A stretch of DNA of 64,000 bases, from contig OX597833.1 in assembly GCA_951406725.2 (NCBI GenBank), positions 22,382,001-22,446,000 on the forward strand. The letters run 5' to 3'. The position numbers and the translations under genes were made by a program. This stretch comes from Octopus vulgaris. Taxonomy: Eukaryota. Position 1 is the first letter of the stretch, and each line of letters opens with the position of its first letter. Below, one piece after another: positions 26,130 to 64,000 of this stretch. A model generated the notes under the pieces. That model was given only the letters and a program-made list of their open reading frames with translations. It was not told the origin of the DNA and did not search any database.

Positions 26130-26175
26130 CAATAATGTTACAAGTAAAACTTTATTCTTCATATATTACAAAAAA
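26130..26175 (-). terminator. Candidate minus-strand polyadenylation site
   Basis: AATAAA at 26156-26151, with upstream TGTA motifs and a T-rich downstream tract, at the end of an AT-rich 3'-UTR-like segment (26.1-26.7 kb). AATAAA is common in AT-rich DNA, so this is tentative. Confidence 0.35.
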
Positions 26176-39330: not shown

Positions 39331-41661
39331 AGAACCTCGATTATGGATTCTCAACTTCATCTTGTCTGTACATATCAAGACTGTTCCACTTCGTAACATC
39401 AATAAATAGGGTCAAAGTATCTGTAATTGATTTGTTGACAATTTCATTATTACATATTTAAATAGAGGTAACAATAATAGAAAAGTACCCCATGAAGTTG
39501 GCACTAATCAATAGATTACAGGATTCATCACAATTGTTTTCTACTGACCTCAGTTTACTGCTTAATGCTGCTTCTTACTGTAGCAAGTTGCAGGTTGAAG
39601 ATATCATGAGGCTGACATGTTCCATCCAAACTGATGCTCTCTCTCTGGAACATTTCATAAGTCTTCACCAGTGTTTTGTAAAGGTTGTTCCAGCACACAA
39701 TTACCAATCAATTTATAGATGTTTCATCAAGCAGATGCTATTAATTTCCACTAATGTTCTGTTATGTTATCAATTTCTAGTGTATGCTCCATCATCTGTC
39801 AATTTCCATTTATGATTCATAACTCACGAGTTTCCTGTAGATGATCTGTCATCAGCTTGCAATTTTACAATTGCCAAATGCATATATGTTGTTATTGTAC
39901 ATGATGCCAGTTAACTATTAAAATTATCTTTGAGATTCCTATATAACTGAAAATCAATCAAGCAAAAACTGCTTCTGATCTATGATGTCATCACAATGTG
40001 TTGTAGTAGAGAAAGCAGCAAGTGAAAGATAGTACATCATGTGCTGAACACTGAATGTCTTCCATTCCATTTCACTGTCTCTTATATTGGCCTTGCCTAT
40101 GCAAGATCATTCAATGTAAACATTAAGAGTCATCATATAAATTCATGATACTACACACTTCCAGGGTTATGTAGAAGACACTGTTCTTACTTTACCACTG
40201 TCAAAAGAAGTTCAGAGATACTAATGAAATTGGAAATGAATGTCACCAGCTTCCATTAAACATTTTGTCATATTCATCACTAGCTTCTATTAAATGGTCC
40301 TTCACAGTTGCCACCACTAGTTGTCATCAGCTTCTGTTTGCAGTATGATAGTTGTCTTGATTTTATGCACAATTACAGTTCTCACCAACTTCAATCAGCT
40401 GCTTCACTAGTATGTCCCCAGTTTCCAGTAGGTATTTCACAACACAGCCACCAATCTTGAGATGATTCACGAAGACACTTGCTACCAGTTTCTTGTCAAC
40501 GATGTTCCACCACGTAGTTGTCACCAGCTGTGTCAATTATAGATATCCTCATATATTCTCTTTCACAATCCATGGATTTTTCTTTTCCTTTCACATCTGA
40601 AGTCCAGCAGTTGATAATCATTGTTGTAACACAGTAAACACCTGGTACCAGATACACAAGTTCCCACACCAAGACATGGTATCTGCAAAAGAAAATATCT
40701 GAAAAGAAAAAAAAAACTCACCGCTTCTTTCAAGCTTACAAATCAGCACTGATGTGCCACAGTCTCTTTAACATATAAATCTCTCAGATGTTCAAAGCAG
40801 TCATCAACAATCATTAGACATTGCCATTGTATGTAGAAATACTGTTTTACATATTACAAACTGATTGGCTAAGATCAGTCACATATAGAAAATCAAACAA
40901 AACCTACTTCCACTTCTTGTCCCTCAAGTCACCAATGGTAAGCAGCAACCTTAGATACCTCAGGATAGTGTTATTTTCATCAGTTTTCACCAGCTTCCAA
41001 AAGATAGTCCACAGATGCCACCAACTGTTCTGTCAGTTTCCTCAAGTTCTGTCAGTTTCATGTTCTGTCAGTTTCCTCAAGTTTCTTGTTAGTTACATAC
41101 ACATTCAATTTTGTAGATACCAATAGCCTGAAAATAAAGTAAAACAAACCTCCACTTCTTTTTGCTTCACAAGTCACCACTCAGTCACAGGGCTATCATC
41201 AGGTTCTGCTCTATGCTTCCATAGTCTTCATGCAGTCACAACTTCTCTGCTCCATATTCCATACTTATCTATAGTTGCACATGTTCCACCAATTGAAATA
41301 AGCAGCCATTAGATGATATACTATTATCACCAGCTTCCTTGAATGTTCCATCACAGTCATCTCTAGTTTGTTAAGTCACATGACCAGTCACTTTTGTAAA
41401 TTCATGGATGCTGAATATTGATCTGGTACCAATAGCATGAAAATGAAGTAAAACAAACTTCCACTTTCATCAAAAGCCCCATTGAGATTTGCTACCAGTT
41501 TCCATTACACATCTCACTAACCACCAGTACGTGGTCTGTTTCCCATCAAATGCACCACAATCTTTACTAACTTCCATCAGATGCTCCAATTGAGATTTAG
41601 CAGCAGTTTCCATTTCAATTGTCAAAGACTCTACCAGTTTTCATCTAATATTTCACCACAA

Positions 41662-41785
41662 ATTCTGCCGAGGTCGACTTTGCCATTCATCTTTTTGGGG
41701 GTCGATAAATTAAGTACCAGTTGCATATTGGGGTTGATGTAATCGACTCCCCCACCAATTTTGGGGCTATGTGCCTAGAGCAGAA
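41662..41785 (+). mobile_element. 5'-truncated SINE with TSD
   Basis: SINE core GAGGTCGACTTTGCC...AAGTACCAGTT, flanked by a 15-bp TSD AATATTTCACCACAA (41647-41661, 41786-41800). Confidence 0.85.
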
Positions 41786-44700
41786 AATATTTCACCACAA
41801 TTTTTACTATCTTCTATCAAATGTTTTGTTGCAGTTGGCACTAGCTCTCATTAGACCAGTTGGATTGCTTCATCATATTGTCATCAGTATGAAGATGTTC
41901 CACTATTTGGTTTTAACCATTTTCTTGTTGATGTTCTACCACATAGTTGTCACCAGCTTTGTCAATTATTGATGTAACCCACATTTTCACTTTGACTATC
42001 ATTTCATTTTTTTTTTTTCATTTCATTTAGTTTCACCTCACGAGATGTGGCACATGCATAGTTCATCAGCTGACAGCCACTCTTGCTGCACACTAAACAT
42101 TTGGTACCAAATACACAAGTTTCCACACAATAACAAGGTATTTATAAAAGTAAATACAAGTGAAAACCCCACCTCTTCTTCCAGTTTCACAAATCAGTAA
42201 TGATGGGCCACACACTCTTCAATACATAACTGCCTCCAGAAGTTCAAATCATCACCAGCTATCACATATGTTGGACACTTGACATCAGTAGTATGTGGAA
42301 AGTCTCTTGTTTTATATATCAATACTTGACAGCCAAGCATTATTCAAATGATAATAAACCTGAAAATGAAACAGAACATACCTCCACTTCTTGTCTCTCA
42401 GGTCATCATCAAGCTACAACTGTAGATACCTCAATGCAGGGCCATCATAAGGTTGGTATTCATTTTCAGATGCACATATTTCACCACAATTGTTACCATT
42501 TTCCATTTGGTGCATCACAGTCATTAGATGTTTTGTTCTCATCATCAGTTTCATTTGGCTGTTTCATCACAGTTAATTATTTCCAATCACTGTTGTTAAT
42601 ATGTAGCTGCTAATGATCTGATACAAATAGCCTGAAAATGAAGCAAAACAAGCCTCCACTTTTGTTTCACAGGTCATCACACAGCCTTAGATGGCACAGT
42701 TGTCACCAGCCTCTATCAGATGCTCCATCAGTATAGGACCATTATAAAACTGGTATTAATCTTTAGTTGCACATATTCCATCCTGTTGAGATGTGTCAAA
42801 ATTAGATCCTCTATTGTTGTCATCAGCTTCCTTTGGATGTTTCATCAGTCATCTCCAGTTTCTTGTCGATTCCACATTCACTTTCTTTAATGTGTAGATA
42901 ACCTGAAAATGAAGCAAAAATGTACCTCCAATTGCTTCTGCTGCCAGCTTCCACTAGACATTCCAGCACAGTTCTCATTAGCTTCCATCAGATGTTTTAT
43001 CTCAGTCAGTACACTGCTTCATCACAAAGTTGCCACCAGTTTTGTCAATTACTGAGATGCCAAAGAGGTCCTTCATGAGTATAGTAAGTACCTCTCATCA
43101 TATTCAATCACAATTGCCACCAGCTTCCAATTCCATGTTCAACAGCATCCATTATTTATCACAGGTCGTCCTTAGATTTTCCACCATACAACTGTCACCA
43201 GCTTCCTTTGAATATACCACTTTGATCACCAGCATATAATAAGATATTCCAGCTCCTTCACACTATCATCAGTAACCAGATCTTCCTTTACAAAGTTGTC
43301 ACCAGCTTCATTAATTATGGATGTCAACACCTTTACTGTCAATTCTGCTGCACACCAAACACCTGGTACTAGACATTTGAGTACCATTCAATGACAGGAT
43401 AACTGCAACAGAAACTAGCTGAAAAGAAAATCTCACCACCTCTTTCAATCTCACAAATAAGCAATGATGTGCCAGTCTCTTCAATGCAAAAAGGTTGTCT
43501 CAAATGTTCAGATCACCAGCCAACATATATGATGTTGAACACTAGACATCACTCTGCTATAAGGAAATTCTTTTGTTTTACATATCTGTTGACTGTCAAA
43601 TCGTTGCATTACAATAATCCTGAAACTGCAACAAAAAAACCCCACTTCTTGTCTCTCAGGTCACCAGATAGTCGACTGTTATCACCAGATTCTATTAAAT
43701 GTTCCACTGTTGTCACTGACATGTCATTTGCTTCCTTTGCATGTTGTAGTGTAGTTGTCAGTAGATTCTTGTCAGTCACACACACATTCACTTCTGGTAA
43801 ACAGGGGGATACCAGCAATTGATCAGATAATCTGTAAATGAAGCAAAACATACCTCCACTTTTTGTATCATAGGCCAATCTGTCAGACATCACTTTAAGA
43901 TATTCCATGATACTTGCTAGTTTCTATTAGATGCTCCATCACAGTTGTTCATAAGAATGTATCAACTTCCCTTGGATGTTTCATCAGTCATCACCAGTTC
44001 TGACATGCATCTGTACATTCACTTTTGTTAATAAGAGGGTCTCATGATTGATAAGATGTCAACAACCTGAAAGTGATGCAAATAATACCTCTACATCCGT
44101 TTATTGCACAGGCCAGTCTGTTAGACACAACTTTAAAATATTCCACGACACTCGCCACAAGTTTTCTGTAGATGCTCTAAGATTTCACAAGATTCCACTG
44201 GATGGCCTATCACAGTTGCTTTCATTAGATATTCTGTCAAATTAATCACCAGCTTACAATAGACATTCCATCTCAGTTGTCAAGACCTTCCAGATATCCT
44301 ACCGCAATGTCAAGTTTCCAATACAGATGTCACCAGCTTCAATTGCACATTCTAGTAAAGTTCTCATTAGCTTTCATCAGATAATCTGCCATAGCTGTCA
44401 CCAACTTTCATTCCATACTCCATCACAAGTATCCATTACTTATTGTGTTACACAACTGTCCTCAGAGATGTACATCACAGTTGTGGCCACTTTCCTTTCA
44501 GATATGTTCCATCAGTTTTCAATGGCTTCCATTAGGTATACCACCACATTCATCACCAACTTCTAATAAATATTCTATCCCACTTTTCACCATAGTTGTC
44601 AGTTTTGTCAATTACAGATGTCATCCTCATATATTCACAATCGATCCTTTCTCTTTCTCTCACATGTATAGTTCAGCAGTTGACAACCGTTGTTACACAA

Positions 44701-45944
44701 ACATCTGGCACCAGATACACAAGTTCCATGCAATGACAGGATATCTGCTAAAGACAAACTCACTTCTTTAAAAATTCCAGGTTTTTCACAACTGTCATCA
44801 GCTTCCTTTGGACATCTAATCCGTTATTAGCAGTTCTTTTCAGTTGCATGCACATTCACTTTCACTAATATGTGAATGCCAGTGATTGATCAGCTACTAA
44901 TAACCTGAAACTGAAGCAAATCGTACCTCCACTTCTTCCTCTCAGTCAATTACAACTTTTAGGATACTTAACACAAGTTTCCATTTTTTGTTTCACAAAG
45001 TCATCACTTCCATTAGACAGCCTGTTGCATTTGTCACTAGCAACGATTCCATGTCCTTCATATGGCAGTCATTATTTACCATGTAACACAGTTGTCATCA
45101 ATGTTCTAAATCAGAGCCATTACACTTTCTTTTCAGATATGTTAGACCAGCTTCCTGTAGATTGCTTCATCATACTGTCATCAGTAGCCAGATATTTCAC
45201 CAAAAACTGTCACCATTTTCCTTTGAAAGATGTTCCATGTGAATGTCAGTTTCTTCAATTATGTCACTATTAGAATTCCACTTTTCTCTTCTTCTCTCGA
45301 ATGAATAGTCCAGCAGTTTATGTTTTATACAATACAATAACCACCTGGTACCAGATACAGTCACTGAATAGGAACTTTTGTATCTGTAATAAAAAATAAA
45401 TCTCACTTCTTTCAATCTCCCAAGCCAGTTTCCATTTCATGGTCATCACATTTGCAATCAACTTTCATCAGATGTCCAGCCACTGCTGTCAGGTCGTCAG
45501 TTTCTATTAATTGTCCAGCCAGTTGCCACCAACTCTATACCAGATGACCTACCATAACTATTACTAGTTTCCATTGCACTTATGGACAGACACATTAGAT
45601 ATCAAAGAGCCTAAAAATGAAGCAAAACAAACCACTTCATATCTCCCAGCTCAGTAGTCAGTCAACAACTGTGGATGTCTAAAGACAGAGTCATCATAAC
45701 TTTGGTAATAATCATCAGTTGCATTCAATCACAATTGCAACAAGCTTTCATTAAATGTTCCATCACACAGTTGTTATCAGTTAATAGTCAATGATAAATG
45801 TCATCCTCAGCAAGAAGAGAAAATACCTAAAAAGAGCTTGCTAATCTCCAGATGTTCAATCACATTTCTCATCAGTCACCAGATGTTCCATCATGGTCAC
45901 CATCAAGTCAAGAGATGTTCCATCAGTTGCCACTATCAGTCACG

Positions 45945-46085
45945 AGATGTTCCATCACTGCAACCATCAGTGTCCAGATGTTCCATCACTGCCACCATCA
46001 GTGTCCAGATGTTCCATCACTGCCACCATCAGTGTCCAGATGTTCCATCACTGCCACCATCAGTGTCCAGATGTTCCATCAGTTG
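45945..46085. repeat. Short 31-bp tandem array (~4 copies)
   Basis: Unit AGATGTTCCATCACTGCCACCATCAGTGTCC. Confidence 0.85.
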
Positions 46086-46359
46086 CCACCAGTCTCCTGA
46101 TGCACCATCACAGTTGCCATATGTTCCATCACTATTGCTTTCAGTCTCCAGATGCTGCATTGCAGTTGCCAGCCTCTAGATGTTCAATCATTGTTGGTGC
46201 CAGTCTCCAGATACACCACCAGTCTCTAGATGTACCATCACACATCACCAGTTGGTTGTCAATTATAGATGTTATCCTTATCTGCAAAAGAAAATATCTG
46301 AAAGCAAGACTCACCAATTTCCATTAGATGTTTCAATGCTGTTGCCATCAGTCCCTAGA

Positions 46360-47530
46360 TGAACCATCATAGTTGCCACCAGTCTCCAGAAATTCCATCA
46401 CAGTTGTCACCACTCTTTAGACATTCCATCAGTTGCCACCAGTCTCCAGATGTTCCATCACAGTTGCCACCAGTCTCCAGATGTTCCATCACAGTTGCCA
46501 CCAGTCTCCAGATGTTCCATCACAGTTGTCACCAGTCTTCAGACGTTCCATCACAGTTGTCACCAGTCTTCAGACGTTCCATCACAGTTGTCACCAGTCT
46601 TCAGACATTCCATCAGTTGCCACCAGTCTCCAGATGTTCCATCACAGTTGTCACCAGTCTTTAGACATTCCATCACAGTTGTCACCAGTCTCCAGACGTT
46701 CCATCACAATTGCCACCAGTCTTCAGATGATCCATCACAGTTGTCACCAGTCTTCAGACATTCCATCACAGTTGTCACCAGTCTTCAGATGTTCCATCAC
46801 AGTTGTCACCAGTCTTCAGACATTCCATCAGTTGCCACCAGTCTCCAGATGTTCCATCACAGTTGTCACCAGTCTCCAGATGTTCCATCACAGTTGTCAC
46901 CAGTCTTCAGATGTTCCATCACAGTTGCCACCAGTCTTCAGACATTCCATCAGTTGCCACCAGTCTCCAGATGTTCCATCACAGTTGTCACCAGTCTCCA
47001 GATGTTCCATCACAGTTGTCACCAGTCTTCAGACGTTCCATCACAGTTGCCACCAGTCTTCAGACGTTCCATCACAGTTGCCACCAGTCTCCAGATGTTC
47101 CATCACAGTTGCCACCAGTCTCCAGATGTTCCATCACAGTTGTCACCAGTCTTCAGACGTTCCAGCACAGTTGTCACCAGTCTTTAGACGTTCCATCACA
47201 GTTGTCACCAGTCTTCAGACGTTCCATCACAGTTGTCACCAGTCTTCAGACGTTCCATCAGTTGCCACCAGTCTCCAGATGTTCCATCACAGTTGCCACC
47301 AGTCTCCAGATGTTCCATCACAGTTGTCACCAGTCTTCAGACATTCCATCACAGTTGTCACCAGTCTTCAGACGTTCCATCACAGTTGTCACCAGTCTTC
47401 AGACGTTCCATCACAGTTGTCACCAGTCTTCAGACATTCCATCACAGTAGTCACCAGTCTTCAGATGTTCTATCACAGTTGTCACCTATTTCCAAACGTT
47501 CCATCATGGTTGCCACCAGTCTCCAGATGA
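46360..47530. repeat. 31-bp minisatellite (~38 copies) with interspersed 28-bp variants
   Basis: Unit CACAGTTG(T/C)CACCAGTCT(C/T)CAGA(T/C)GTTCCAT; variants lack CAC. Confidence 0.95.
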
Positions 47531-48004
47531 TCCACACAGTTGCTACTAGTTTCCTTTAGATATAAAAAAGCCTGAAAATGAAGCAAAATGAGCCTTGTCT
47601 TTCTACTTTAGTGACCAGTCCTTTGGATGTTTGTAGATGTTTACAACAGGTTAAATTTATACCATTCTATCACAATTGCCAACAGTTTTCTTTAGATGTC
47701 CTGTCACACATTTTACCAATTTCCAGTCAATGTTCAGTCCACCAGAAGCAGTTTCCATTGTATATTCCATCAGAAAATCATCAAGGAGATTCTACCAAAT
47801 AGTTATCACCAACTTCTCAGGAATGTTCCATCACACAGGTGTCACCAGTCAATTGTAGATGTCATCCTCATCTGCAAATGAAGAACCTGAAAGAAAGACT
47901 TGCTAGTTCTCATTAGATGTTCCATCACAGCTGCCACCAGTTTCCAGATGTTCCTTCACAACTATCATTTAGCATTCCGGGGATGCCACCAGCTTCCATT
48001 GGAT

Positions 48005-49458
48005 CGGCTTGCAACTCGGCACCTTGAGGGGCAAGTCGATGCCTTCGGATAGCGTCATGGGACGTTGGACGGAGTGCCCGGTTAAGCTGCTAGGGGTTTG
48101 GTTTGGACCAAACCTCCAGGTAGAAAAGAACTGGGCAGAAGTATCGAGCAAGGTGACCTGCATAGTCAAGAACTGGTCTTGGCGGTGGCTATCCTTGAAA
48201 GGGCGGGCGGAGGTGGCCAATGTGTTTATCGCATCGGTCATCATTTACCGCCTAACCGTCGTGCCCTGTCCCGCTTTGTGGTTGAGCAAGCTGGAGAGGC
48301 AGATCTCCCGCTTTTTGCGGAAGGGCACTACTCCTCTTGTGAGGCGTCCTATCTGCTGCCAGAAGCCGTTGAATGGAGGACTGGGGATGCCTTGGCCGTT
48401 GATGCGCAAACATGCGCTGAGGTTTAGGCATCTCTGGCTACTCCTGAATGGTGAACAGGTGTGGTCTCCGTTCGCGAAATGGATGTTTCCCAGGTTCACT
48501 AGTTTCAGTGGACAAGAAAGCTGGTTCTTTCGTAGATCGAGGTTGGGTACATGGTTTACGGAGTGCCGTAAAGCACTCCTACAGTTCCATCACTCGGGTA
48601 ATGCTAGCGGTTTTGGTACCACCACATTTTTCTATAGCAGGTTGGTAGAGGCTGGGAACAACGATACCCTAGGTCTCGGAGATAACCAGTTAGACAGTCT
48701 GTTCCGAAGGACGTTCGGGCCAGGTTGTTTGGATAATTTCCAAAAATCCCTGGCCTGGCAATGTTACCGAGGAGCCTTACCCGTTCGAGATAAGCTCGCA
48801 CGACACGGTCAAACTACCACTGCTGACTGTCCAAGATGCGGACGGGATAGGAAACTGTCCTGCATGCTATTGTTCAGTGTCCGGGTGTGTCTGAAGTGTA
48901 GGCTTATGCAGAACATCTACTGTCAGGTTTGGGAAGAGTACAGCTGTCATCTGAGTCAATCGTAAAAATTGACCTGCCGGATTTCCTCACAAAAGAAGTT
49001 AACCAATGTTTTCTCGCTGTAGTAACAATAGCAAAAGAGGTGGTCTGGAAGTCACAAATGAAAGGTTTAGCGACAGGCAACCTCATCTCCGGTCTCGGGT
49101 TGGTGAGATATTTTATCTTCCACCTTAGAAGGAAGGTGAGGCTGGAGAGAAGATGCCATTCAAAGAAAATGTTCAAAGAAAGATGGTTGCATGTTGCGAG
49201 GGTGCTGGGAATGAAAGATTCCTCGTGAACATGTCATAAGTCTGCATACAAAAGTTTCAGTAGGAGAATGGGGCTTGTGGGGTCGGAGCATAAGCCATCT
49301 CTCTGCTTCATCTCATTTTTGTATTTCGTCTTTGTTGTATCTCATTCGATTTCATTTTATTTTGTAAAATTTTAAAAGTCATATAATCATTGTGTGTCTG
49401 ACCCCAATCAGGCTATACTGTCCCCCTCTATGTTTGGGCCCTTGTGGTTAATAAAGAA
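48005..49458 (+). mobile_element. 5'-truncated L1/Tx1-clade LINE (RT C-terminus, zf-RVT region, 3' UTR)
   Basis: KLLGVWF, LSLKGRA, GGLG and GALPVRDKL..CPRCG motifs; frameshift near 48850; 3' end AATAAAGA; 7-bp TSD ATTGGAT (47998-48004, 49459-49465) splitting a host repeat unit. Confidence 0.9.
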
Positions 49459-52059
49459 ATTGGATGTTCTACCAGTTGTCACAAGTCCTCATTTTATGTT
49501 TCAGGACAGCTACCACCAGTCCCCAATAGAAGTTTCATCACAGATGACATACACATGTGCAAAAAAAATATCTGAAAAGAATTCCTATTCTTTCAATCTC
49601 ACAAATTGGCAATGACATGCTAGTCTTTGATAAATGAATCTCTTCCAAATGTCCAAATCAATAGTCATCACAATTCACATCACTGTGCTTTGTGGAGATT
49701 TTGTTAGCAGCTTTCATCAGGTGTTCTACCACACTTTCAACCAGTCTTTGGTATGTGTTCCATCACAGTTGTCACCAGTCTCCAGATGATCCCTCAGTTG
49801 CCACCCATGTCTGATTCATTAGGTTATCAAAAAGCCTGAAAATGAAGCAGAATGAGTCACTTCTTTCATCCAATGTCATCAGTCCTGATGATATTTGTAG
49901 ATGTTTAAGGTAGGTCCATCATAATCATTAGATGCATTCCACTGTAGTTGCATAAAACTTCCATTATATGTCCTGACATCCATTTTACCAATTTCCAGTA
50001 GATAATTTTCTATTAGCTAAGACCAGCTTTCACACTGTTTTCCATGGGACAATTTTCTTTAAGGAGACACAGTCACAATCTTTTCACAATACAATTATCA
50101 CCAATTTGATGTCAATTATAGATATCATCCACACCTATAAAAAATGAACTCAAAGAAACAACTCGCCTCTGCTTTTAGTTTCATAAAATGGCTATGATTT
50201 GCTACAATCTCTTCAATGTACATAGATCTGCCTAATATGTTGAGATCATCAGCAATCACGTTTTACAAGACATGTGCTGTGTGCAGATTCATTTGTTAGC
50301 AGTTTTTATTAGGCATTTCAGAGCCATCAACAGCTGTCATTGTGTATTCAATCAGTTACCACCAATCTCCATTGGAAGGTCCACCACCTGGTTGCTAATC
50401 CACATTAGCTGTTGCCCTAGTTACCAATCTCCAGATGTTCCATCAATAGTGCCATCAGTCTCTATCATCAATCTCCAAATGATATACCAGCTTCTTGTCA
50501 GATTCATTAGATATCTAAAGACCTGAAAATGAAGCAGAATGAGCTACTTTCTGAGTCACCAGTCCTGTCATATTTGCTGATATTTACGGCAAGTCAATCA
50601 TAACTCTGGAAATATTCATTAGTTGTATTCCATCACAACTGCCAACAACTTTCATTACATGTTATATCACCCATTTTATCAGTTACCAACAGATAATGTT
50701 CAATTAGTCAGCAGCAGCTTCCACATCACCATTACCCTCAGGGAGTTTCCCCACATATACATGCCACCAATCTGTCAGAAATTTTCCATTACACAGTTAC
50801 CACCAGTTGGTCATCATTACAGATGTCACTTTTAACTGCAAAAGAAGCTACCTGTAAAAAGAAATGCACCTGTCTCCATTAGATGCTCTATCACAATTGC
50901 CACCAGCCAAATGCTCCATGACAACTTTCACCAGTCTCCAGATGCTCCACTACAGTTCATTAAACATTTTAGAGACGTCACCAGCCTTCCTTATGTGTTC
51001 TATCAAAATTGACATCAGTCTCCATCTGTTCCAGTGCAGTTGCCAACAGATTCCATTAGATGTCGCATTGCAGTTGCCACCAGATTCAATCAGATGTTGC
51101 ATCGCAGTTGCCAGCAAATTCTATCAGATGTTGCATTGCAGTTTCCATCATATGTTGCATCACAGTTGCCACTAGTTACCTTCGGATGTTGCATCGCAGT
51201 TGCCATTGGCCTCCAGATGATACACCACAGGTGTCACCAGTTTCATGTTGGACACATTACAGATGTAAAAACAAAAGCCTGAAAATGAATCAACATGCAC
51301 CATTTCTTTCCTTCTAAGCCACCAGTCTTGGTGACACTTGTAGATGTTCATGTCAGGGCAATCATAACTTTGGTAAGAATTAGTTGCATTCCATCTTAAC
51401 TACCAACAGTTTTTATTAGATGTTCTGTTGGTCAGCATAGCTTCCACCAATTTGTCACAATATCTTCCATCCAACAATTGTCGCCTGTCGATTGTCAATT
51501 GCAGATGTCATCCCCATCTGCAAAAGAAAAACACTTCTTTCCACCTCACAAATAGCCAGTCTCTTCAATATATAAAGCTGTCTCAGATGTTCACAGATCA
51601 TCATGTTTCACAATAAACATCACTATGCTTTGCTTTTCTAAGCAAATTACACTAGTCATTTCAGTGCTGTCATCAGCTCCTATTAGATGTTCTACCAGTT
51701 ATCAGTCTCCATCACAAGTGCCATTATATTTGGCATCAGTAACCAGATGTTCTATCATTTTGTTTCCACCATTTTCCAAATTTCCCATAAACGTAGACAA
51801 TCCATAACACATGTCACTAGTTGCCATTAGAAGTTTCACCACACATATTATTATCATAGGCAAAGGAAAGTACATAAAAAGAACTCTTCTTTCAGTCACA
51901 CAAATCAGCAATGACATGCCAGTCTTAACAAAATATAAAGCTGCCTCAGATGTTCAAATCATCAGCAGTTATCACATTTCACAACAGATATCAGTGTGCT
52001 ATGTGCAAATTCTTTTGATTGCAGCTATCATTAGGCTTTCCGGAGCTGTCACCAGCTTC

Positions 52060-53910
52060 ATTAGATGTCCCATCATAATCGACACCAGTCTCCACGAGAT
52101 GTCCCATCATAATCGACACCAGTCTCCACGAGATGTACCATCACAGTTGTCACCAGCCTCTGTGAAATGTACTATCGGTTTCCACCAGCCTCCATCAAAT
52201 GTTCCATCATAGTTGCCACCAGCCTCCATTAGATGTTCCAACACAGTTGCCACAAGCCTCCGTGAGATGTACCATCAGTTTCCACAAGATGTTCTATCAC
52301 AGTTGTCACCAGTCTCCACAAGCTGTTCCATCGCAGTTGCCAGCCTCCGTGAGATGTACGATCACAGCTGCTACCAGCCTCCATCATATGTAGCCTTACG
52401 GTTGACACCAGTCTCTGTAAGATGTACCATCACAGTTGCCACCAGCCACTGTGAGATGTACCATCAGTTTCCACCAGCCTCCATCAGATGTACCATCAAA
52501 GTTGCCACCAGTCTCTGTGAGATGTACCATCACAGTTGCCACCAACCTCCACAAGATGTTCTATCACAGTCGCCACCAGCCTCCACAAGATGTACCATCA
52601 CAGTTGCCACCATCCTCCATGAGATGTACCATCAGTTTCCACCAGCCTCCATCAGATGTTTCATCACAGTAGCCACCAACCTCTGTGATATGTACCATCA
52701 AAGTTGCCACCAGCCTCCACCAGATATTCCATCACACATTCCACCAGCCTGCATCAGATGTACCATCAAAGTTGCCACCAGCCTCCATTAGATGTTCCAA
52801 CACAGTAGCCACCATCCTCCAGGAGATGTACCATCATAGCTGCCATTAGTCTCGATAAGATGTTCTATCACAGTCGCCACCAGTCTCCACAAGCTGTTCC
52901 ATCACAGTCGTCACCAGTCTACATAAGCTGTTCCATCACATCGCCACCAGCCTCTGTGAGATGTACCATCAGTTACCACCAGCCTTCATCAGATGTACCA
53001 TCAAAGTTGACACAAACCTCCGGGAGATGTAACATCACAGTTGCCACAAGCCTCCGTGAGATGTACCATCACAGTTGCCACCAGCCTCTGTGAGATGTAC
53101 ATCACAGTTGCCACCAGCCTCCATCAGATGTTTCATCACAGTAGCCACCAACCTCCGTGAGATGTACCATCAGTTTCCACCAGCCTCCATTAGATGTTCC
53201 AACACAGATGCCACCAGCCTACATCAGATGTACCATCAAAGTTGCTACCAGTCTCTGTGAAATGTACTATCACAGTCGCCACCAGCCTCCACCAGATGTT
53301 CTTTCACACTTTCCACCAGCCTCCAACAGATGTACCATCAAAGTTGCCACCAGCCTCAATTAGATGTTCCAACACAGTTGCCACCATCCTCCGGGAGATG
53401 TACCATCACAATTGCCACCAGCCTCCATCAGATGTACTATCACCGTTGCCAACACCCTCCATCAGATGTACCATCACAGTTGCCACTAGTCTCCACAAGC
53501 TGTTCCATCACAGTCATCACCAGTCTGCACAAGCTGTTCCATCACAGTCGCCACGACCTCCATGAGATGTACCATCACAGTTGCCACCAGCCTTCATCAG
53601 ATGTTCCACAGTTGCCACCATCCTCTGGGAGATGTACCATCACAGTTGCCGCCAGTCTCCATGAGATGTTCCACCACACTTGCCACCAGTTTCCACGAGA
53701 TGTTGCATCAGTTGCCACCAGCGTCTGCGAGATGTACCAACACAGTTGCCACCAGCTCCCATCAGATGTTCCAACTGTTGCCACCAATCCCCACAAGCTG
53801 TTTCCATCACAGTCGCCACCAGTCTCCATGAGATCACAGTCGCCACCCGTTTCCACTAGATGTTTCATCACAGTTACCACTAGAGATTTTCCACCACAGT
53901 TGCCACCAGT
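52060..53910. repeat. ~34-bp diverged minisatellite
   Basis: Unit CACAGTTGCCACCAGCCTCCATCAGATGTACCAT; its right part is duplicated at 54841-55616. Confidence 0.85.
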
Positions 53911-56900
53911 TTTCATTACATATATAAAAAAAGCCTGAAAATGAAGCAAAACATACCACTTCTTTTCTTTTAAGTCATCAGTCCTGTCAACATTTTTAGA
54001 GTAGGACAATTATAACTTTGGTAAGAATTAATTGCATTCCATCATCATGGCTAGCAGCTTTCATTCGGTGTTCTGTCACATTTTTTGCCAAACCTCCACC
54101 ATATAGCCACCGTCAATTTGTCACAATTCTTCCATCATACAGTTGTCACCAGTGTCATCTCATCTGCAAAAGAAAATATCTGGAGATACTCACCTCTTCT
54201 TTCAGTTTCACAAGTTGATAATGATCAGCCACTCTTTTTCAATATATAAATCTCAGAAGTTCAAATTATCACCATCACATTTCACAATTCTCATGGAGAC
54301 TGGCGGCAACTGTAAGCGGCTTCCATTAAATGTTCTACCAGTTTTCACCAGCTTTCATCATGTCTATCATAGTTGACACCAGTCTCCAGATGGCCTATGA
54401 TACTTGCCATATCTCCATCCCAGTTGTCAATCTACAGATGTTCCACCACACTTAATCTCATCTACAAAGGAAAATAACTGAAAAGAATCCTTCACCCGGT
54501 CTCATAAATCAGTAACAATGTGCCACAGTCACTTCAGTTATGAAGCTGTCTCAAATGTTCAAATCATCACCATTGATCTCATTTTACAATAGACACCACA
54601 GTTGCAAATCTCCATCAGAAGTTCCACAATTGCCAGTTTCCATCATCAGAAGTTCTATCAGAGTTGCCAGTCTTCATTATAAGTTCCACCACTGCTGTCA
54701 TAAGTAACCAGATGTTCCATCAAATGTTGCTTTCTGTTAGTAGATGTTCTATAATTGTTGCTATCAGTTTTCAGATGTGCCAGAGTTGTCACCAGTCTCC
54801 AGATGCTCCATCATTGTTGCCAGATGTTCCATCTAAGTCATCATCACAGTAGCCACCAACCTCCGGGAGATGTACCATCAGTTTCCACCAGCCTCCATTA
54901 GATGTTCCAACACAGATGCCACCAGCCTACATCAGATGTACCATCAAAGTTGCTACCAGTCTCTGTGAAATGTACCATCACAGTCGCCACCAGCCTCCAC
55001 CAGATGTTCTTTCACACTTTCCACCAGCCTCCAACAGATGTACCATCAAAGTTGCCACCAGCCTCAATTAGATGTTCCAACACAGTTGCCACCATCCTCC
55101 GGGAGATGTACCATCACAATTGCCACCAGCCTCCATCAGATGTACTATCACCGTTGCCAACACCCTCCATCAGATGTACCATCACAGTTGCCACTAGTCT
55201 CCACAAGCTGTTCCATCACAGTCGTCACCAGTCTCCACGAGCTGTTCCATCACAGTCGCCACCACCTCTGTGGGATGTACCATCACAGTTACCACCAGCC
55301 TTCATCAGATGTTCCATCAGTTGCCACCATCCTCCGGGAGATGTACCATCACAGTTGCCGCCAGTCTCCATGAGATGTTCCACCACACTTGCCACCAGTA
55401 TCCACGAGATGTTGCATCAGTTGCCACCAGCGTCTGCGAGATGTACCAACAGTTGCCACCAGCCTCCATCAGATGTTCCAACTGTTGCCACCAATCCCCA
55501 CAAGCTGTTTCCATCACAGTCACCACCAGTCTCCATGAGATCACAGTCGCCACCCGTTTCCACGAGATGTTTCATCACAGTTACCACTAGAGATTTTCCA
55601 CCACAGTTGCCACCAGATGTTCTATCACAGTTACCACTAGCCTCCAGATGATCTGTCATAATTGCCACCAGTTTCTTGTCTGATTCATGAGATATTGAAA
55701 AACCTGAAAATGAAGCAGAATGAGCAACTTCTTCCCTCCTAAGTCACCAGTCCTATAAATATTTCTAGATGTTTGGGACAGGTCAATCACAATTTTGGAA
55801 ATATTCATTAGTCTCCACCAGATGCTCCACAAGAGCTGCCACCAGTTTCCATTAGATGTTCCACCACTTAACCTCATCTACAAAGGAAAATAACTGAAAA
55901 GAATCCTTCACCCAGTCTCATAAATCAGCAACAATGTCTCAAATGTTCAAATCATCACCACTGATCTCATTTTACAATAGACTTCAGTGCTTTGAGATTT
56001 TTTTGTTAGTAGTTTTCATTAGCAATTCCAGGGTTGTTGCCAGCTTCCATTAGATGTACTGCCACAGTTGTCACCAGCCTCCTTCAGATGTTCAATCAGT
56101 TGCCACCAGTCTCTTGATGGATCTACCACAGTTGCTACAGCTTCCAGATAATCTACCACAGTTGTCACCAATCTCTTGTCTGAATCATTAGATATCAAAA
56201 AAACCTGAAAATGAAAAGCCAGTTCTTTTTTCCTGAGATAACTAGCCCTTTCAAGACTTGATTAGGGCAGGTCCATCATAACTTTCATAATAACAATGAG
56301 TTGCATTCCATTCTAACTGCCACCAGCTTTCATCAGATGTCTGGTCACCCGTTTTACCAATTTCCAATAGATAATGTTCATTGGTAGACACTATCTGCCA
56401 CTGTGTTTTTTAACAGGCAATTATTCTCAAGGAGATTCCACAATTTGTTATACATCTACTAGAGTTGTCATTCACAGGTTGTCAATTATAAATGTCATCC
56501 TTATCTGCAAAAAAAAAATACTCAGAAAGAAAACTCACCTCTTCTTTCAGTCTCACAAATCAGCAATGAGCCACAGTTTTGACAATACATAAAAATTGTC
56601 TCAGAAGTTCACAAATAATCATATGTTTCACAACAGACAACACTACACTCTGAATATTCTTTTGTAAGCAGCTTTCATCAGACATTTCAGCCATCTGCTT
56701 ACATTATGTTTCATCGCAGTTGCTATCAGTCTCTAGATGTTCAATAGTAGTTGTCATCAGTCTCCAGATACTCCATCACAGTTGCCAAGAATCTTCAGAT
56801 GCTCCACCAGTTACCACTAGTATCTTGTCTGATTCATAAAGATATCAAATGCCCAAAAATGAAGCAAAATGAACCACTTCTTTCCTCCTAAGTTACCAGT

Positions 56901-59900
56901 CCTCTCAACATTTGTAGATGATTAGGACAGGATAATCAACTTTGGTGAGAATCATTGTTGCATTCCATCACAATTGCCTTCAGCTTTTTCATTAAATGTT
57001 CCATTTGTCACAAACTTATCTCTTCTTTCAGCCTGAAAAATCAGTAATGACAAGCCAGTCTCTTTGATATATAAAGCTGTCTCAGGTGTTCACAAATCAT
57101 CACCAACCATTACATTTCACAACAGACACGGCTATGATATGCAGAGATTCTTTTGTAAGCAGCTTTCATTGGACATTCAGAACTGTCATCAGCTTCCACA
57201 AGTTGTTCTACCACAATTGTCACCAGTCTCCATCAGATGTTCCTTCACAGTTGCCACGTCTCCATCCACTGTTCAATTGCAATTGCCATCTATTGTTCAA
57301 TTGCAGTTGTCACCTGTCTTCATCTGATGTTCCATCACAGTTGCCACTCTCCAATAGATGTTTCACCTCAGCTGTCAATTTCTAATCAGAATTATATACA
57401 CAGTTGCCACCAGTTTCTTGTCTAATTCATTAGATAATAAAAAGCCTGAAATGAAGCAAAATGAGCCAACTCTTTCTCCTAAAGTTACCACTCCTGTCAA
57501 CATTTGAATGTTATCCTCATCTGCAAAGTAAAGAAAAAGTGACTTGTCTCTAGATATTTTTTCACAGTTTCCACCATTCTTCGTAAGATGTTCCATCACA
57601 GTTGCAACCAGCTTCCATCAGATGTACCATCAGAGTTGCTACCAGCCTTCATCAGATGTACCATCACAGTTACCACCAGCCTCCATCAGATGTACTGTAA
57701 TTACCAATCTCCTTCAAATATTCCATCATAGTTGGCACCAGTCTTCATTAGATGTTCTACAGTTGCCTCCAGTTTCTTGTTTCACCAATTACACATACAA
57801 AAAAGCCTGAAAATAAAGGAAATCAAACCACTTTTTCTTCCCAAGACATCAGTTCTGTAAACATTTGCAGATTTTAAAAGTTCTATTAGTAGGCACCATC
57901 TTCCACTGCATTATCCATCAGAGGTTCCACCAAAGTCACAAATGTTCCATCATACAACGGTCTCCAGTTGGTTGTCAATTACAGATGTCATGCTTATCTT
58001 CAAAAGAAAAACTCACCCACAGCCTCTACAATATACAAAGTTGTCTCAGACGTTCAAGTCACCACCAGCCATCAAATTTCATAGTAGACATCACCGTTGT
58101 ACTTGGAGACTTGTTTTATGTATCATCCATGCACTGCCTAAACAAGATAAACCTAAAATCAAAAACAAAATGTACCTCCACTTCCATCATGAGCCTGGCA
58201 ACATCACTATTCACATGTTCCATTACAGCTGTCCAATGTTCCACAGTTGCCATCATTCTCCATTAGATGTTCCATCCCAGTCACCACCAGTTTCCAGTAG
58301 ATGTTCCATCACAATTGTCACTAGTCTATTGTTTGATTACAGTTGCCACTAGTCACCATTAGAAGTTTCTCTCTGTTGCTATCAGCAAACAGATGTCCAA
58401 TCAGAGTTGCTAGCAGTCACCATTAGAAGTTCCAGCTTGCTTGCCATCAATTGTCAGATGCTCCATCACACTTGCCATTAGTCTCCAGATGTTCCACTGT
58501 AATTGCCACCATTCTCCATTAGATGTTCCATTGCAGCTGCCACCAGTTCTCATTAGATGTTCCATCCAAGTTGTCATTAGCCTCCATCAGGTGTACCATC
58601 ATAATTCCAGCCAATTCTTCTTTTGATATACATTCACAGATGCCACCAGCCTCCATCAGATCTTCCATCACAAATGTCTGTCCACAGTTTGTCTCACCAA
58701 TTTACATATACAAAAAAGCCTGAAAATCAAGAAAATCATAGCACTTCTTTTCCAAGTCACCAGTCCTGTTAAATTCATAGATGTTTAAAAGTAGGTCCAT
58801 CATAACTTTGGTAGTAATCTAAACTTGCATCCCATGAAAATTGCCGTCACCCTTTTTACCAATTTCCAGTAAATAAATGTTCTATTAGAAGGCACCATCT
58901 TCCACTCTATTTTCCATCAGACAATTTTCCTCATGGAGATTCCACCAATGTCATAAATCTTCCGTCATACAGCTGTCTTGGTTGGTCATAAATTACAGAC
59001 GTCATACTCATCTGCAAAAGAGAACTTTAAAAAGAAAAACTTACCTCTTCTTTCAGTATTGCAAATCAGCAATGATGAACCACAGCCTCTTCAATATACG
59101 AAGTTGCCTCAGATGTCCAAATCATCACCAGCCATCAAATTTTGTAGAAAATGCCACCTTGGTACTTGGAGATTCTCTTGTTTTATTTATGACCTGCCAG
59201 ACAATGGTCACATAACAATAAACCTGAAATTAAAACAAATACCTCCACTTCCATCATGAGCTTGGTAAAAATCATTATTCACATGTTCCGCAGGTGCCAC
59301 CATTCTCCATTAGACATATCATCACAGCTGCTACTAGTCCCCATTAGAAGTTCCATGACGGTTGCCATCATTTTCCAGATGTTCCATCACAGTAGCCACC
59401 AGTTTCCATCAGACATTCCATCACAGTTGTCACCAGTCTCTTAACCGAATCATTCCATGTCATAAAACCTGAAAATGAACCTCTTCTTTCCTCTTAACTT
59501 GCTAGTTCTCTTGGAGTGAGACGTCATTCTCGTCTGCTAAAGGCATTTCATGGAGAAAAGTCTCCAAGCATTTATTCAGTTGCCATCAATCATCAGATGT
59601 TTCATCGCAGTTGCCACCAGTCTTCATTAGTTGCTCCATCACAGCTGTTACCAGTCTCTATCAGATGTTCCATTACAATTGCTAGTCTTAAATGTTCCAT
59701 CACAGTTGCCTCCAGTTTCTTGTCTCACCAGTCACAGGGACGAAAAAGCCTTAAGATCAAGGCAATCAAACCACATTTTTCTTCCCAAGTCACCAGTCCT
59801 GTTAACATTTGCAGTTGTATATAAACAGGGCCATAACTTTGGTAGTAATCTAAATTTGTATTCTATGAAAACTGCCAACAGCCTTTCTACCATTTTCCAG

Positions 59901-62900
59901 TGCATAAATGTTCTATTAGTAAGCACCATCTTCCACTGTATTATCCATCAGACAATTTTCCACAAAGAAATTCCAAACAGCTGTCACCAGTTGGTTGTCA
60001 ATTACAGATGTTATTCTTATCTGCAAAAGAAAACATTTGAAAAGAAAAACTCACCTCTTCTTTTTGTGTCACAAATCAGCAATAATCTATAGTCTCTGCA
60101 ATATACTAAGTTGTCTCAGATGTTCAAATCACCATCAATTCTCATTAGATGTTCCAGAGTCTCTACCATTTTTTGTTAGACATTCAATCGCAGTTGCCAC
60201 AAATTTCCATTAGCTGTTCCATTGCAGTTGTCACCACAGATTCAAATCTCCACTAGAAGCTCCAAAGTTGTCACAAGTTTCTTGTCTGACTTGTTAGATT
60301 CTAAAAAACCTGAAATTAAGCAAAACAAACCACTTCTTTCCTCCAAAGTCACCAGTCAACATTTGCAGATGTCCAAAGGCATGTCTACAGTAACTTCGAT
60401 AATAATCACTAGTTGCATTCCATCACAACTGCCACCAACTTTCATTACATGGTCTGTCCGCGTTTTGCCAGTTTCCAGTAGACTGTTCTATCAGTAAGCA
60501 TAAACTACTGTAGTACATCCTACCAGACAATAATCCTCAAGCAGATTCTACCATATAATCAATTTGTCACAAATATTCCATTAGGGAGTTCTCACCAGCT
60601 GGTTGTTAATTACAGATGTTATCCTTATCTGTGGAAGAAAAACTCACCTCTTCTTTCAGTCTCACATGATGAACCACATTCTCTTCAACATATAAAGCTG
60701 TCTCAGAAGTTCACAAATCCTCAACCATCTTCTTTCACAATAGACATCACTGTGCCATGTTGAGGTTCACTTGTAAGCAGCTTTCATTAAATATTTCAGA
60801 GCTGTCATCAGCTTCCATGAGATGTTCTACAACACTTGCCACTAGTCTTCATGTTCCATCACAGTTGCCAGTCACCATCAGCCTCCAGATGTTCAATAAG
60901 TTGGCATCAGTCTCCTGATAATCCACCATAGTCATCACTACTTCCTTGTCCAGTTCATTTGATACAAAAATGTCTTGCAGATGTGATCCTTATCTGCAAC
61001 AGAAAATATCTCAAAAGCAAAACTAACCTCTTCTTTCAGTCTCACAAATTGGTAAAAGTGACCAGTCTCCAGACGTTTTTCAGTTGCCATTCGTTGTTCT
61101 GTTACCATTGCCATTAAAGTCCTCATACTCCATGACCATTGCCACAAGTCTCCATTAGAAGTTTCATGACAGTTGCCTTCAGAAACCAGATGACCCATTA
61201 CAGTTGCCAGATAACAGCAGCCACCCACATCCATCAGACATTTCATCACTCTCCCAATAGCTTTCCACAGTTGCCATTAGTTGCTCTATCCTGTTGCCAC
61301 CAGTCCCAATCAGATGCTTCTTCACTTGCCACCGATGTCCACATCTTCCATGACCATTGCCACCAGTTACCATCAGAAACTAGATGTTCCATCAGTTGCC
61401 AGATGTTCTATCACAGTATGAACTTTAACCATCAGTTATTCATCACATGTTCTCCATCAGATGTTCCACCACAGTTGTCTCCAGTTTCTTGTCTCACCAA
61501 TCACATAGATGAAAAAGCCTGAAAATAAAGGGAAGCGAACTACTTCTTTCCTCCCAATCAGTTCTGTGAACATTTGCAGATACTGGTCCATCATAACTCT
61601 GGTGGTAAGCTAATTTTCTGCAGATACATTTATTTGTACACACCATTATCCATCAGACGATTTTCCTCATGGGAGATTCCACAAAAGAGTCACCACCAAC
61701 TGGGAAAAATCTTTCTATCATACAGATGTCATCATCTGCAAAACAAAAAACATCCACAAAGAAAATCTCACCTCTTTTTTCAGTCTTGCAAATTGGCAAT
61801 ATATGAAGTTTTCTCAGATGTTCAAATCATCACCAGCCATCAAGTTTCATAATAAACATTGTTGTAGTACTTGGAAATTTTCTTGTGTTACCATCACTTG
61901 TCAACTGCCAATTGGACGCACAAGAATAAGCCTGAAATTCAAAGTGTACCCTGCACATCTATCACAAGCTTGGTAACAGAACTATTCACATTCCCTTACA
62001 GCTGTCTTTAAATGTTCCAGTCTCCACCATTTTCTGTTAGATGTTCCATCATAGCTGCCACACAGGCCATTAGATGTTCCTATCACAGTTGATACAAGTG
62101 TCCATTGGATGGCCAAGAAGTTCCTAAGTTGTCACCAGTTTCTTCTTTGACTTAAGATAACAAAAATCCTGAAAATGAAGCCAAACAAAGCATTTCTTTC
62201 TTCTAAAGTCACCAGTCAACATTTGCAGATGTCCACATGCAAGTCCACCATAACTTCAATAATTAGTTGCATTCTATCACAATTTCCAATAGATTATATT
62301 CCATTTGCAGGCATCAGCTTATATAATACATCCTACCAGACAATTATCTTCAAGATTCCATCATGTAGTTACCATCAAATAGTCACAAATATTTCATCCA
62401 AAAATTGCCACCAGTCCTTTGTCAATTACAGACATCATCTGCAGAAAAAAATACCAGAAGATAAACTCACCTCTTCTTTCAGTCTAACAATTTGGCAATG
62501 ATGAACCAGTCTCTTCAACATATATAGCAGTCTTAGAAGTTTACACATCATCAACAACCATCAGGTTTCATAATAGACATCACTATGTTGAGGTTCTTTT
62601 TCAAGTAGCTCTTATTAGATATTTCAGAGCTGGCACCAGCCTACATAAGATTTTCAACCACACTTGCCAGTCTTCATTGTATTGCCAATCTCCATCAGAT
62701 GTTCTAAAGTTGCCATTGATCTCCAGATGTCCAACAAGACTTGCTATCAGTCTCCAAATGTTCAATCAGTCAACACTACTCTCCAGATGATCCACCATAG
62801 TTACCACTAGTCCCTTGTCCAACTCCTCAAATATGAAAATGTCTGAAAACAAAGCAAAAGAAACCACTTCTTTCCTCCAAATTTACCAGTCTTGTTGACA

Positions 62901-63654
62901 TTTGTAGATGTCCAAACACGTGTGCACAGTAACTACGATAATAATTAGTTGAATTCTATCAAATATTTCGTCCAAAAGTTGCAACGAGTTGGTTATCAAC
63001 TACAGATGTCATCCACATCTAGAGAAAAAAATAGTCAAAGAAAAGCTCACCTCTTCTTTCAATCTCACTAATTGGTGATGATGAGCCAGTCTCTTCGATA
63101 CATGAAGCTGTTTCATTATGTCTTAAAGCAGACACCACTAAGCTATGCAATGATTCTTTTCTAAGCAGCGCTTATTAGGAATTCAGACCTGTCACCATTT
63201 CCATTAGTAGTTCTGCCACATTTGTCACCAGTGTGTCATATGTTCCATCACAGTCGCATCCAGTCACAAATCTTTTATCATAGAGCTGTCTCCAGTTAGT
63301 TGTCAATTATAGATGTCATCATTTTCTGCAAAAGAAAACCTCAGAGAAGAAAAACTCACCTCATCATTCAGCTTCACAAATCAGCATAGTCTCTGCAATA
63401 TACAAAAGTTGCCTCAGACACTCAAATCATCATCAGTCGTCAAGTTTCTTTGCAAGCATCGTTGAGGTACTTGGGAGTTTCTCTTGTGTTACCATCACTC
63501 ATCAACCGTCAAATACTGGACAAATGAAAATAGGCCTGAAATTCAAGCAAAATGTACCTCCACTTCAGTTTCCAGATGTTACATCACGGTTGGTACCCAT
63601 CTCTAGACATTACATCATGGTTGCCACCAGTCTCCATAAGATTCTATTACAATT

Positions 63655-63890
63655 GCCACCAGTGCCCATCAGATGATTCTATTAGTTGCCACCAGTCACT
63701 ATCACATGTTCATCTGTTGCTACCAGTCACCATCAGCTGCTCCAGCTTTTGCTACCAGTCACCATCAGATGCTCCACCTGTTGCTACTAGTCACCATCAG
63801 ATGCTCCATCTGTTGCTACCAGTCACCATCAGTTGCTCCATCAGTTGCTACCGCTCACCATCAGATGCTCCATCAGTTGCTACCAGTATT
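63655..63890. repeat. 32-bp tandem array (~7 copies)
   Basis: Unit CTACCAGTCACCATCAGATGCTCCATCAGTTG. Confidence 0.8.
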
Positions 63891-64000
63891 ATCTCGAACT
63901 CCATGAAAATTGCTAACAGCCTTTTCTACCAATTTCCAGTAAACAAATGTTCTATTAGTAGGCACCATCTTCTACTGTATTATCCTTCAGACTATTTTCT

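Follow-up and report, generated by a model that had tools for sequence, protein, structure and literature searches.

A G/A-skewed octopus repeat unit with about a hundred donor-acceptor pairs left uncut in assembled contigs, a candidate nuclear RNA that docks splicing factors

The 64,000-nt stretch of the Octopus vulgaris genome analysed here (contig OX597833.1, positions 22,382,001 to 22,446,000 of the forward strand; hereafter the window) holds part of a G/A-skewed, repeat-built unit of ~55 kb on the minus strand, in which splice donors stand 18–39 nt ahead of acceptors in cassette after cassette. We found this donor-then-acceptor geometry to be real and far from chance, and the cassettes are left uncut in the contigs of every sequencing run compared. 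The unit would form a long non-coding transcription unit on the minus strand. Our favoured reading, to which we give about an even chance, is that it yields a long non-coding RNA (lncRNA) that would be retained in the nucleus and would dock early splicing factors through pairs that cannot be spliced, its localisation, binding and function being those we infer.

Read 5' to 3' on the minus strand, the unit runs through ~41 kb of cassettes, a 13-kb purine-rich repeat domain and an AT-rich tail with poly(A) signals. Its skew (G over C on the minus strand) extends from ~82000, in window numbering continued past the right edge (C20 22464000), down to ~26000; 26000..64000 of this unit, which is single-copy, intergenic and poor in open reading frames (ORFs), lies in the window and ~18 kb lies beyond it. 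Within the window, the cassette domain (39947..64000, minus strand) comprises 28 positions of one class, class A, and 31 of a 22-nt class (class B/C), whilst the whole locus has 50 and 54, respectively, at a median spacing of ~300 nt; both position lists were curated by hand and include decayed copies.

Strong pairs were defined as a G|GTRAG donor followed 18–45 nt downstream by a pyrimidine-tract YAG, with 30 trinucleotide shuffles as controls. Using this definition, we counted 12 strong pairs on the minus strand of window 40–64 kb, against one on the plus strand and 0.3 ± 0.5 in shuffled sequence. For the whole 40–82-kb region the corresponding numbers were 29, 1 and 1.2 ± 1.4 (maximum 6), and the flanks contained two (56 kb) and three (32 kb). 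The original prediction had set this strand and shuffle control beforehand as a refuting test, and neither the plus strand nor the shuffles matched the strong pairs. Strong donors alone were at the shuffle level in the 40–82-kb region (43 versus 38 ± 7), whereas acceptor-like sites were enriched (89 versus 19 ± 4). The enriched features are thus acceptors and the pairing of donor with acceptor, not donors as such.

All nine spans listed in the prediction proved exact on the minus strand, beginning with GT and ending with AG at the lengths claimed. These are the class-A cassettes at 40683..40721 (39 nt; the last of its class, with an inner acceptor at 40699 that gives 23 nt), 46282..46314 (33 nt, inner acceptor at 46298), 54164..54193 (30 nt), 56505..56538 (34 nt), 59012..59044 (33 nt, with a GTAAGT donor), 60021..60054 (34 nt), 61736..61771 (36 nt), 62439..62470 (32 nt) and 63326..63359 (34 nt), the last of which has near-identical twins just past the window edge. 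Both inner acceptors had been predicted as TTTCAG and were found as such. Additional class-A cassettes, not among these nine, are a shortened one of 19 nt (60629..60647) and one of 32 nt with a TAG acceptor (63019..63050), both on the minus strand; the 22-nt class is exemplified at 53935..53956 (minus strand), where a weak donor precedes a TTTTGCTTCATTTTCAG acceptor. Other details had to be revised. The spans range from 18 to 39 nt rather than from 30 to 39 nt, and the figure of about 23 copies was a mixed count, as 28 homologous class-A positions are present in the window and 12 of them have both a strong donor and a strong acceptor. The GAG|GT donor context is missing from two of the listed copies (TTG at 46314, GCG at 40721), and the CTGAT motif described upstream of the donor occurs within 40 nt in only 12 of 29 cases, on a background of ~0.19 per such window.

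In order to see the cassettes in assembled sequence, we compared contigs of four runs with window 55.6–64 kb and of four with 38.7–46.3 kb, amounting to six different runs from five studies and two organisms; this comparison covers 16 of the ~55 kb, the contigs are strandless and rare forms are dropped from them. Sequence from 55.6–64 kb was present in 20 of 24 listed runs. Fourteen of these (four studies; 75–97 % of words present) are likely RNA, a label guessed solely from contig totals of 46–141 million letters as compared with a 2.8-Gb genome, whilst four further runs under the same species label contain almost none of the words; neither set was used as evidence of expression or tissue. 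Contigs of up to 3.6 kb (55.6–64 kb) and 4.3 kb (38.7–46.3 kb) cross the cassettes without omission, and single contigs of 3.6–4.3 kb at a word depth of 116–236 (runs X6, X7 and X17) traverse every cassette in 38.7–46.0 kb. Seven of the nine listed cassettes were bridged unspliced in at least three runs: those starting at 59012, 60021, 61736 and 62439 in four of four, that at 40683 in X7, X6 and X3, and those at 56505 and 63326 in X1, X5 and X6, the latter not assignable to one twin. The cassette at 46282 is marginal, with 26 aligned letters on its upper side, and was not counted as bridged; that at 54164 lies outside the contig-covered stretches compared. The second organism (X17) has the same unspliced contig cover at 41.2–46.3 kb.

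No splice ends were found at the contig joints listed (15 of 38 in 55.6–64 kb and 4 of 4 in 38.7–46.3 kb), and no exact removal of a cassette (18–39 nt) was found among the gaps listed (12 of 16 and 12 of 14). If the runs are RNA, the cassettes are not introns in the dominant assembled form. Lack of any use of the sites had been named as a further ground for refuting the prediction, and this has partly come about, in that the dominant form is unspliced in six of six runs; the observation argues against the use of these junctions, not against binding. Two features of the same contigs would fit a polyadenylated, edited RNA from the minus strand. Depth declines from 39 to 63 kb (236, 136, 19 and 6–10 in X7; 170, 116, 17 and 13 in X6), and on the plus strand T>C changes are more numerous than A>G in the four runs at 38.7–46.3 kb (12:4, 4:0, 3:0 and 22:11). 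We treat both as hints only, as contig depth cannot rank gene parts and alleles mimic editing. Transcription from the minus strand is also favoured by the asymmetry of motifs and skew.

Conservation was measured among paralogs within the locus, a type of alignment that carries ascertainment bias. Class-A units were gathered by flank profiles alone, giving 41 hits, three of which were dropped as second or misaligned hits. Among the remaining 38 units, GT is intact in 31, AG in 33 and both in 29. Weighted for young duplicates, the intact fraction for GT and AG together is 0.65; dinucleotide pairs from the flanks have a median of 0.31 and reach 0.52 at the 95th percentile. Rates estimated on a tree were 0.84 for the core and 1.02 for flank columns matched by base (p 0.002 if columns count as independent), and across the 250 aligned columns the 8-nt windows that evolve most slowly cover GAAAGAAG...GAGGTGAG. 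Retention equal to that of GT was reached by 14 % of flank dinucleotides, and equal to that of AG by 1 %. These alignments suggest modest purifying selection on the cassettes, clearer for the acceptor. At window position 44749, a base common to runs X7 and X17 turns a decayed class-A acceptor into TTTTGCAG, and the window base there may be a derived allele.

The two classes had been described as unrelated, which the sequences do not support. Both have the core GAAAGAAG(A/T)G|GT. Class A reads GAAAGAAGAG|GT...TTTTCAG, this being the inner acceptor, with a second acceptor 16 nt further on; the 22-nt class reads GAAAGAAGTG|GT or GAAGTGGAG|GT followed by TTTTCAG, and one class-A copy has the 22-nt-class donor context, GAAAGAAGTG|GTGAG. 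A common origin is therefore likely, and the two classes cannot be counted as separate evidence. The predicted alternation of the classes was borne out, with 77 switches in 103 against 51.8 expected and a maximum of 72 in 10,000 permutations, a statistic that rests on the hand-curated lists and is inflated by duplication. Just past the window, copies of 0.77 kb are 97–100 % identical and copies of 2.3 kb are 85–92 % identical, whilst older class-A units have a median identity of 63 %. The cassette domain grew by tandem duplication, and copy number is thus no evidence. As to selection rather than chance, the strand-specific geometry is far above chance and conservation gives some sign of selection, but copy number and the existence of a second class are no proof of it.

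Downstream of the cassettes lies the purine-rich domain (26700..39900, minus strand), built of 44-nt repeats with a 132-nt higher-order array at 31942-37236. It contains no G|GTRAG donor, as compared with 17.8 ± 3.5 in shuffles, although its repeat copies are not independent; acceptor-like sites and GGTGGG are likewise absent from these 13 kb. Binding of serine/arginine-rich (SR) proteins by this repeat tail is possible. The AT-rich tail at 25990..26700 (minus strand) is the predicted 3' end, with four AATAAA signals read from the sequence at ~26655, 26597, 26152 and 26003. Over the 40–82-kb region, poly(A) signals are fewer than in shuffled sequence (AATAAA 8 versus 15.2 ± 3.7; AWTAAA 10 versus 25.6 ± 4.5).

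We found little sign of coding function or of a dispersed element. The longest ATG-initiated ORF on the minus strand of the unit is only 113 aa, and the repeats give rise, as a by-product, to long ORFs of low complexity on the plus strand, one of which had no relative at 1e-10 in a protein search. A Pfam scan of 244 ORFs from the flanks and the insert, which passes over exons below ~55–75 aa, returned only transposon domains and SSR1 above the cut-off, and an Rfam scan of 94 kb had no match inside the unit, its sole match being an 18S fragment outside it. These ORF scans turned up nothing to make the unit a host protein gene or an SSR1 intron, and both were set aside. A dispersed transposon was ruled out by genome searches that place the matches at one locus: 19 of 19 in a DNA search fell there, as did the single match of the 22-nt pattern and 5 of 16 matches of the donor 16-mer, whose remaining matches were at the control level (14).

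Pairing energies and spacing suggest how such cassettes could act. The genome's U1 has a standard 5' end, with which class-A donors pair over 8 bp at about -10.8 kcal/mol (a perfect match giving -14.0) and 22-nt-class donors at -4.5 to -6.9 kcal/mol. Amongst 42 scored matches to U1 small nuclear RNA (snRNA) in the genome, more than 20 gene copies form a cluster at C18:48.97-49.21 Mb. According to the available text of PMC4463651, the A complex covers 79–125 nt and human ultra-short introns measure 37–65 nt; the verified minima given in the accessible part of PMC4675715 are 39–40 nt in worm and fly. With gaps of 18–39 nt, most octopus copies fall below the human ultra-short range, although the octopus minimum may differ. 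Pyrimidine tract makes up almost the whole of each cassette, and CTGAT, the branch-like motif, is found upstream of the donor, a position from which, by standard splicing chemistry, it cannot serve that donor. With so short a gap and a misplaced CTGAT, a cassette could likely bind U1 and/or U2AF but would not complete splicing.

Under our favoured reading, minus-strand transcription of the unit would yield a single long non-coding RNA, of which the contigs would be copies. U1 and U2 could not sit together on one cassette, the gap being too short, and the donor overlying the branch and pyrimidine region of each acceptor would hinder its use by distant donors. U1 small nuclear ribonucleoprotein (snRNP) and U2AF are predicted to bind the uncut cassettes and to confine the RNA to the nucleus, where it would act as scaffold or sponge for splicing factors, with the purine-rich spacers and the 13-kb tail predicted to bind SR-type proteins. 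Bound U1 might also block early polyadenylation across 40 kb. In the available portion of PMC6199362, 5' splice-site motifs, U1 and U2AF65 are described as retaining RNAs in the nucleus, and U1 as suppressing 3' cleavage; such suppression fits the low AWTAAA count in 40–82 kb and the absence of strong donors ahead of the 3' end. A masking hairpin, in which a purine run pairs with the U tract and the donor sits in the loop, is possible but was rejected as a specific structure, since it does not rise above composition: z-scores were -2.1 to +1.1, and a shuffle of matched composition was beaten (p ≤ 0.05) by no more than 4 class-A cores out of 24 and 1 class-B/C core out of 21. A stronger version of the favoured reading is possible, if doubtful: a 55-kb architectural RNA trapping early spliceosomes by geometry, in which ~100 pairs would serve as a U1/U2AF docking array (perhaps with SRRM-type, UGC-binding factors) and, with a purine-rich SR-protein tail free of splice sites, would seed a nuclear body.

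Several points weigh against the favoured reading. Within the window, the cassette region has about as many AATAAA as shuffled sequence (7 versus 7.1). The RNA label of the runs is a guess, minor splicing is invisible in contigs, and the check for splice ends in 55.6–64 kb reached fewer than half of the joints there. The aligned part of one X7 contig begins at 56539, precisely on the exonic boundary of a class-A donor, and leaves 21 letters unaligned; another X7 break, at 43333/43336 (2 bases), falls where X17 has an indel, so 56539 may equally reflect an allele or a minor splice junction. Furthermore, the conservation signal is modest in rate, GT alone is equalled by roughly one flank dinucleotide in seven, the flank profiles were trained on 11 of these 38 units, selected because they were intact, and a donor or acceptor has been lost in many copies.

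The duplication history also admits a neutral origin, in which one ancestral unit that chanced to contain an exon boundary or a short intron, now decayed, was amplified by unequal crossing-over, the sites being ignored and the region perhaps transcribed. Unlikely though we think this, it is well served by the young 0.77-kb and 2.3-kb duplications (85–100 % identity), by the core common to both classes, by the many decayed copies and by sites that go unused in contigs, and the available text of PMC3087553 describes amphioxus mirages that carry splice signals without disturbing splicing. In disagreement with it, among units whose median identity is 63 %, GT and AG are jointly retained more often than any of the flank pairs sampled, and G|GTRAG is missing from the 13-kb 3' domain even though GGTGAC, one change off, is common there. 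In the non-array part of that domain, G|GTRAG accounts for 0 of 18 non-C variants, as compared with 9 of 37 for TGTGAG. Additionally, no host protein gene was found in the flank and insert ORF scans.

A combinatorial or back-splicing array would treat the intervening 150–700-nt segments as 'exons' that cannot be joined to their neighbours, so that unit-skipping or looping would give isoforms or circles in some tissue or in a minor fraction. Every segment is indeed bounded by an acceptor and a donor, and the X7 contig start falls exactly on such a boundary. TGC stands at -14 in 24 of 47 22-nt-class acceptors (e.g. window 61519 and 58720, minus strand), and two in-window acceptors of this class have a strong donor 21–22 nt downstream, outlining microexon-like segments; a role for UGC in SRRM3/4-dependent microexons is reported in the accessible text of 10.1101/2024.09.17.613571. 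We nevertheless regard this array as rather unlikely, in view of unbroken multi-kb contigs at a depth above 100 with no splice-type joint in 38.7–46.3 kb in four runs, of the lack of a coding frame to diversify, and of the indel at 43333/43336, which makes an allele conceivable at 56539 too.

Less probable still, the donors might act only as U1 telescripting sites for the 55-kb transcript, with the purine-rich 3' domain as the working part and acceptors that neutralise the donors. AWTAAA depletion in 40–82 kb and the disappearance of strong donors over the final 13 kb leading up to the poly(A) signals would suit such a role, but it is acceptors, not donors, that are enriched and better conserved, and the 22-nt-class donors are weak. 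Finally, that octopus spliceosomes remove the cassettes as true micro-introns, or that the DNA comes from a dicyemid, a parasite of cephalopods, is very improbable and largely refuted: the perfect GT...AG form, dicyemid introns of 26.2 ± 1.9 nt (PMC2222250, available part) and a 30-nt GT-AG intron claimed in human (PMC4675715, likewise) are outweighed by cassettes retained in the contigs of six runs, by intervening segments without ORFs and by a locus placed on a contig of 73.6 Mb, with an octopus SSR1 gene, whose introns are kb-sized, 38 kb away.

Other features of the unit and its surroundings were recorded as well. Between cassettes, an expanded 'body' motif forms a 31-nt spacer minisatellite (46357..47542, minus strand), and related 34-nt arrays lie at 52050-53860 and 54842-55541 (minus strand). 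Two insertions interrupt the pattern. One, at ~48010-49450 on the plus strand and against the skew of the unit, is a retroelement-like fragment with two ORFs lacking a Pfam match, which, judged by eye, we take to be LINE-like (long interspersed nuclear element); the other is a short high-copy element at ~41670-41770, likely a short interspersed nuclear element (SINE), at which contig depth exceeds 12,000 in four of four runs and contigs are interrupted. Near the predicted 5' end of the unit, CpG counts climb from ~82 kb, and in continued window numbering a 54-nt GT-AG segment (81206-81259) and two inverted-repeat pairs (82449-83913) are found. Outside the unit are the remnant of a long terminal repeat retrotransposon (18895-22900, minus strand), with gag, reverse transcriptase, RNase H and integrase domains in separate frames, and an isolated 244-nt 18S rRNA fragment (23423-23666, plus strand; Rfam RF01960, positions 1225-1478). 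The SSR1 (TRAP alpha) gene, of which six exons were mapped, occupies window-equivalent -21889 to -11665 on the plus strand, convergent with the unit; its 3' limit at -11665 is 38 kb from the unit and its introns are ~0.7 kb and longer. One of its exons matches a protein of Octopus bimaculoides at 100 % identity across 86 % of the query, and the gene offers a synteny anchor for locating orthologous loci.

No published description of this locus was found in the literature searched, although supplements and genome annotations may name it, and it is not described in the available portions of PMC9115989, PMC9712504, PMC10700109 and PMC13282606; in one of these, PMC9712504, lncRNAs are given as high in nuclei (its Supplementary Fig. 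3d, as far as the accessible text goes). The cassettes belong to a larger octopus non-coding unit that is apparently undescribed so far. Known architectural or splicing-factor-sequestering RNAs are few outside vertebrates, flies and yeast, with none found for cephalopods in the literature searched. About 100 sub-minimal donor-acceptor pairs at one locus constitute a natural experiment on a spliceosome facing signals that it cannot join. Should the geometric trap be true, it would mean that a nuclear body tunes splicing in an animal noted for regulation at the level of RNA, and that MALAT1/Gomafu have an invertebrate counterpart working by a hitherto undescribed mechanism; should the neutral origin be true, the locus would be an unusually large amplification of splice signals that the cell ignores.

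Compared with known systems, the cassettes differ from micro-introns of the dicyemid or ciliate type in that exact removal was not seen at them among the gaps listed. In sterically enforced mutually exclusive exons of the alpha-tropomyosin type, a donor lies too near the next branch point or acceptor, and the exons are coding homologues of which one is spliced in; OGDH 4a/4b (PMC7969005) is another example. The octopus gap of 18–39 nt may likewise leave neighbours too close to join, but the segments are ORF-free and no splice joints were seen among those listed. Amphioxus mirages are also tandem duplications with splice signals that the transcript ignores, although, according to the available text of PMC3087553, they are 10–160-bp copies of one exon-intron boundary in a protein gene, whereas the octopus units measure 0.3–2.3 kb, have donor and acceptor in intron order, extend over 41 kb and have no host gene that we could find. 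Gomafu/MIAT is an lncRNA whose repeated intron-type signals, an array of UACUAAC branch-point motifs, bind the early splicing factor SF1 (PMC4255692, accessible part); it repeats the branch-point motif alone, as far as that source goes, whilst the octopus unit repeats donor, pyrimidine tract and AG ~100 times. Long lncRNAs are known from octopus itself, namely the Z-linked Zmast and Zfest of 18 and 13.8 kb, the latter overlapping Amnionless (10.1101/2024.12.09.627507, available text). Identity with either was rejected, as Amnionless maps to C16 and the unit to C20.

On our best reading, the octopus unit would work most like the chicken LL2R repeat RNA of lampbrush 'lumpy loops', which, in the available text of 10.64898/2026.03.19.712899, binds spliceosome parts, is loaded with snRNPs and SR proteins and is proposed to remain unspliced. 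LL2R was shown by microscopy in oocytes, whereas the octopus unit is known from its sequence and contigs, and kinship of sequence between the two is not expected. LL2R is one long strand-specific unit crowded with predicted splice sites, as compared with continuous contig cover, strandless, over part of the octopus unit; it is also poor in poly(A) signals, a feature that the octopus region matches for AWTAAA over 40–82 kb but not for AATAAA in its in-window part. According to the same portion of that source, LL2R has more than three times as many donors as acceptors, whilst here 43 strong donors compare with 89 acceptors, counted by our own motif definitions and not by NNSplice. The splicing block would accordingly be reached by different means, a donor excess in LL2R and the 18–39-nt spacing in octopus. 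Both are nonetheless tandem-repeat arrays at a single locus, as our DNA searches indicate for octopus, and both leave their splice sites uncut, which for the octopus unit applies to the dominant form, if the runs are RNA.

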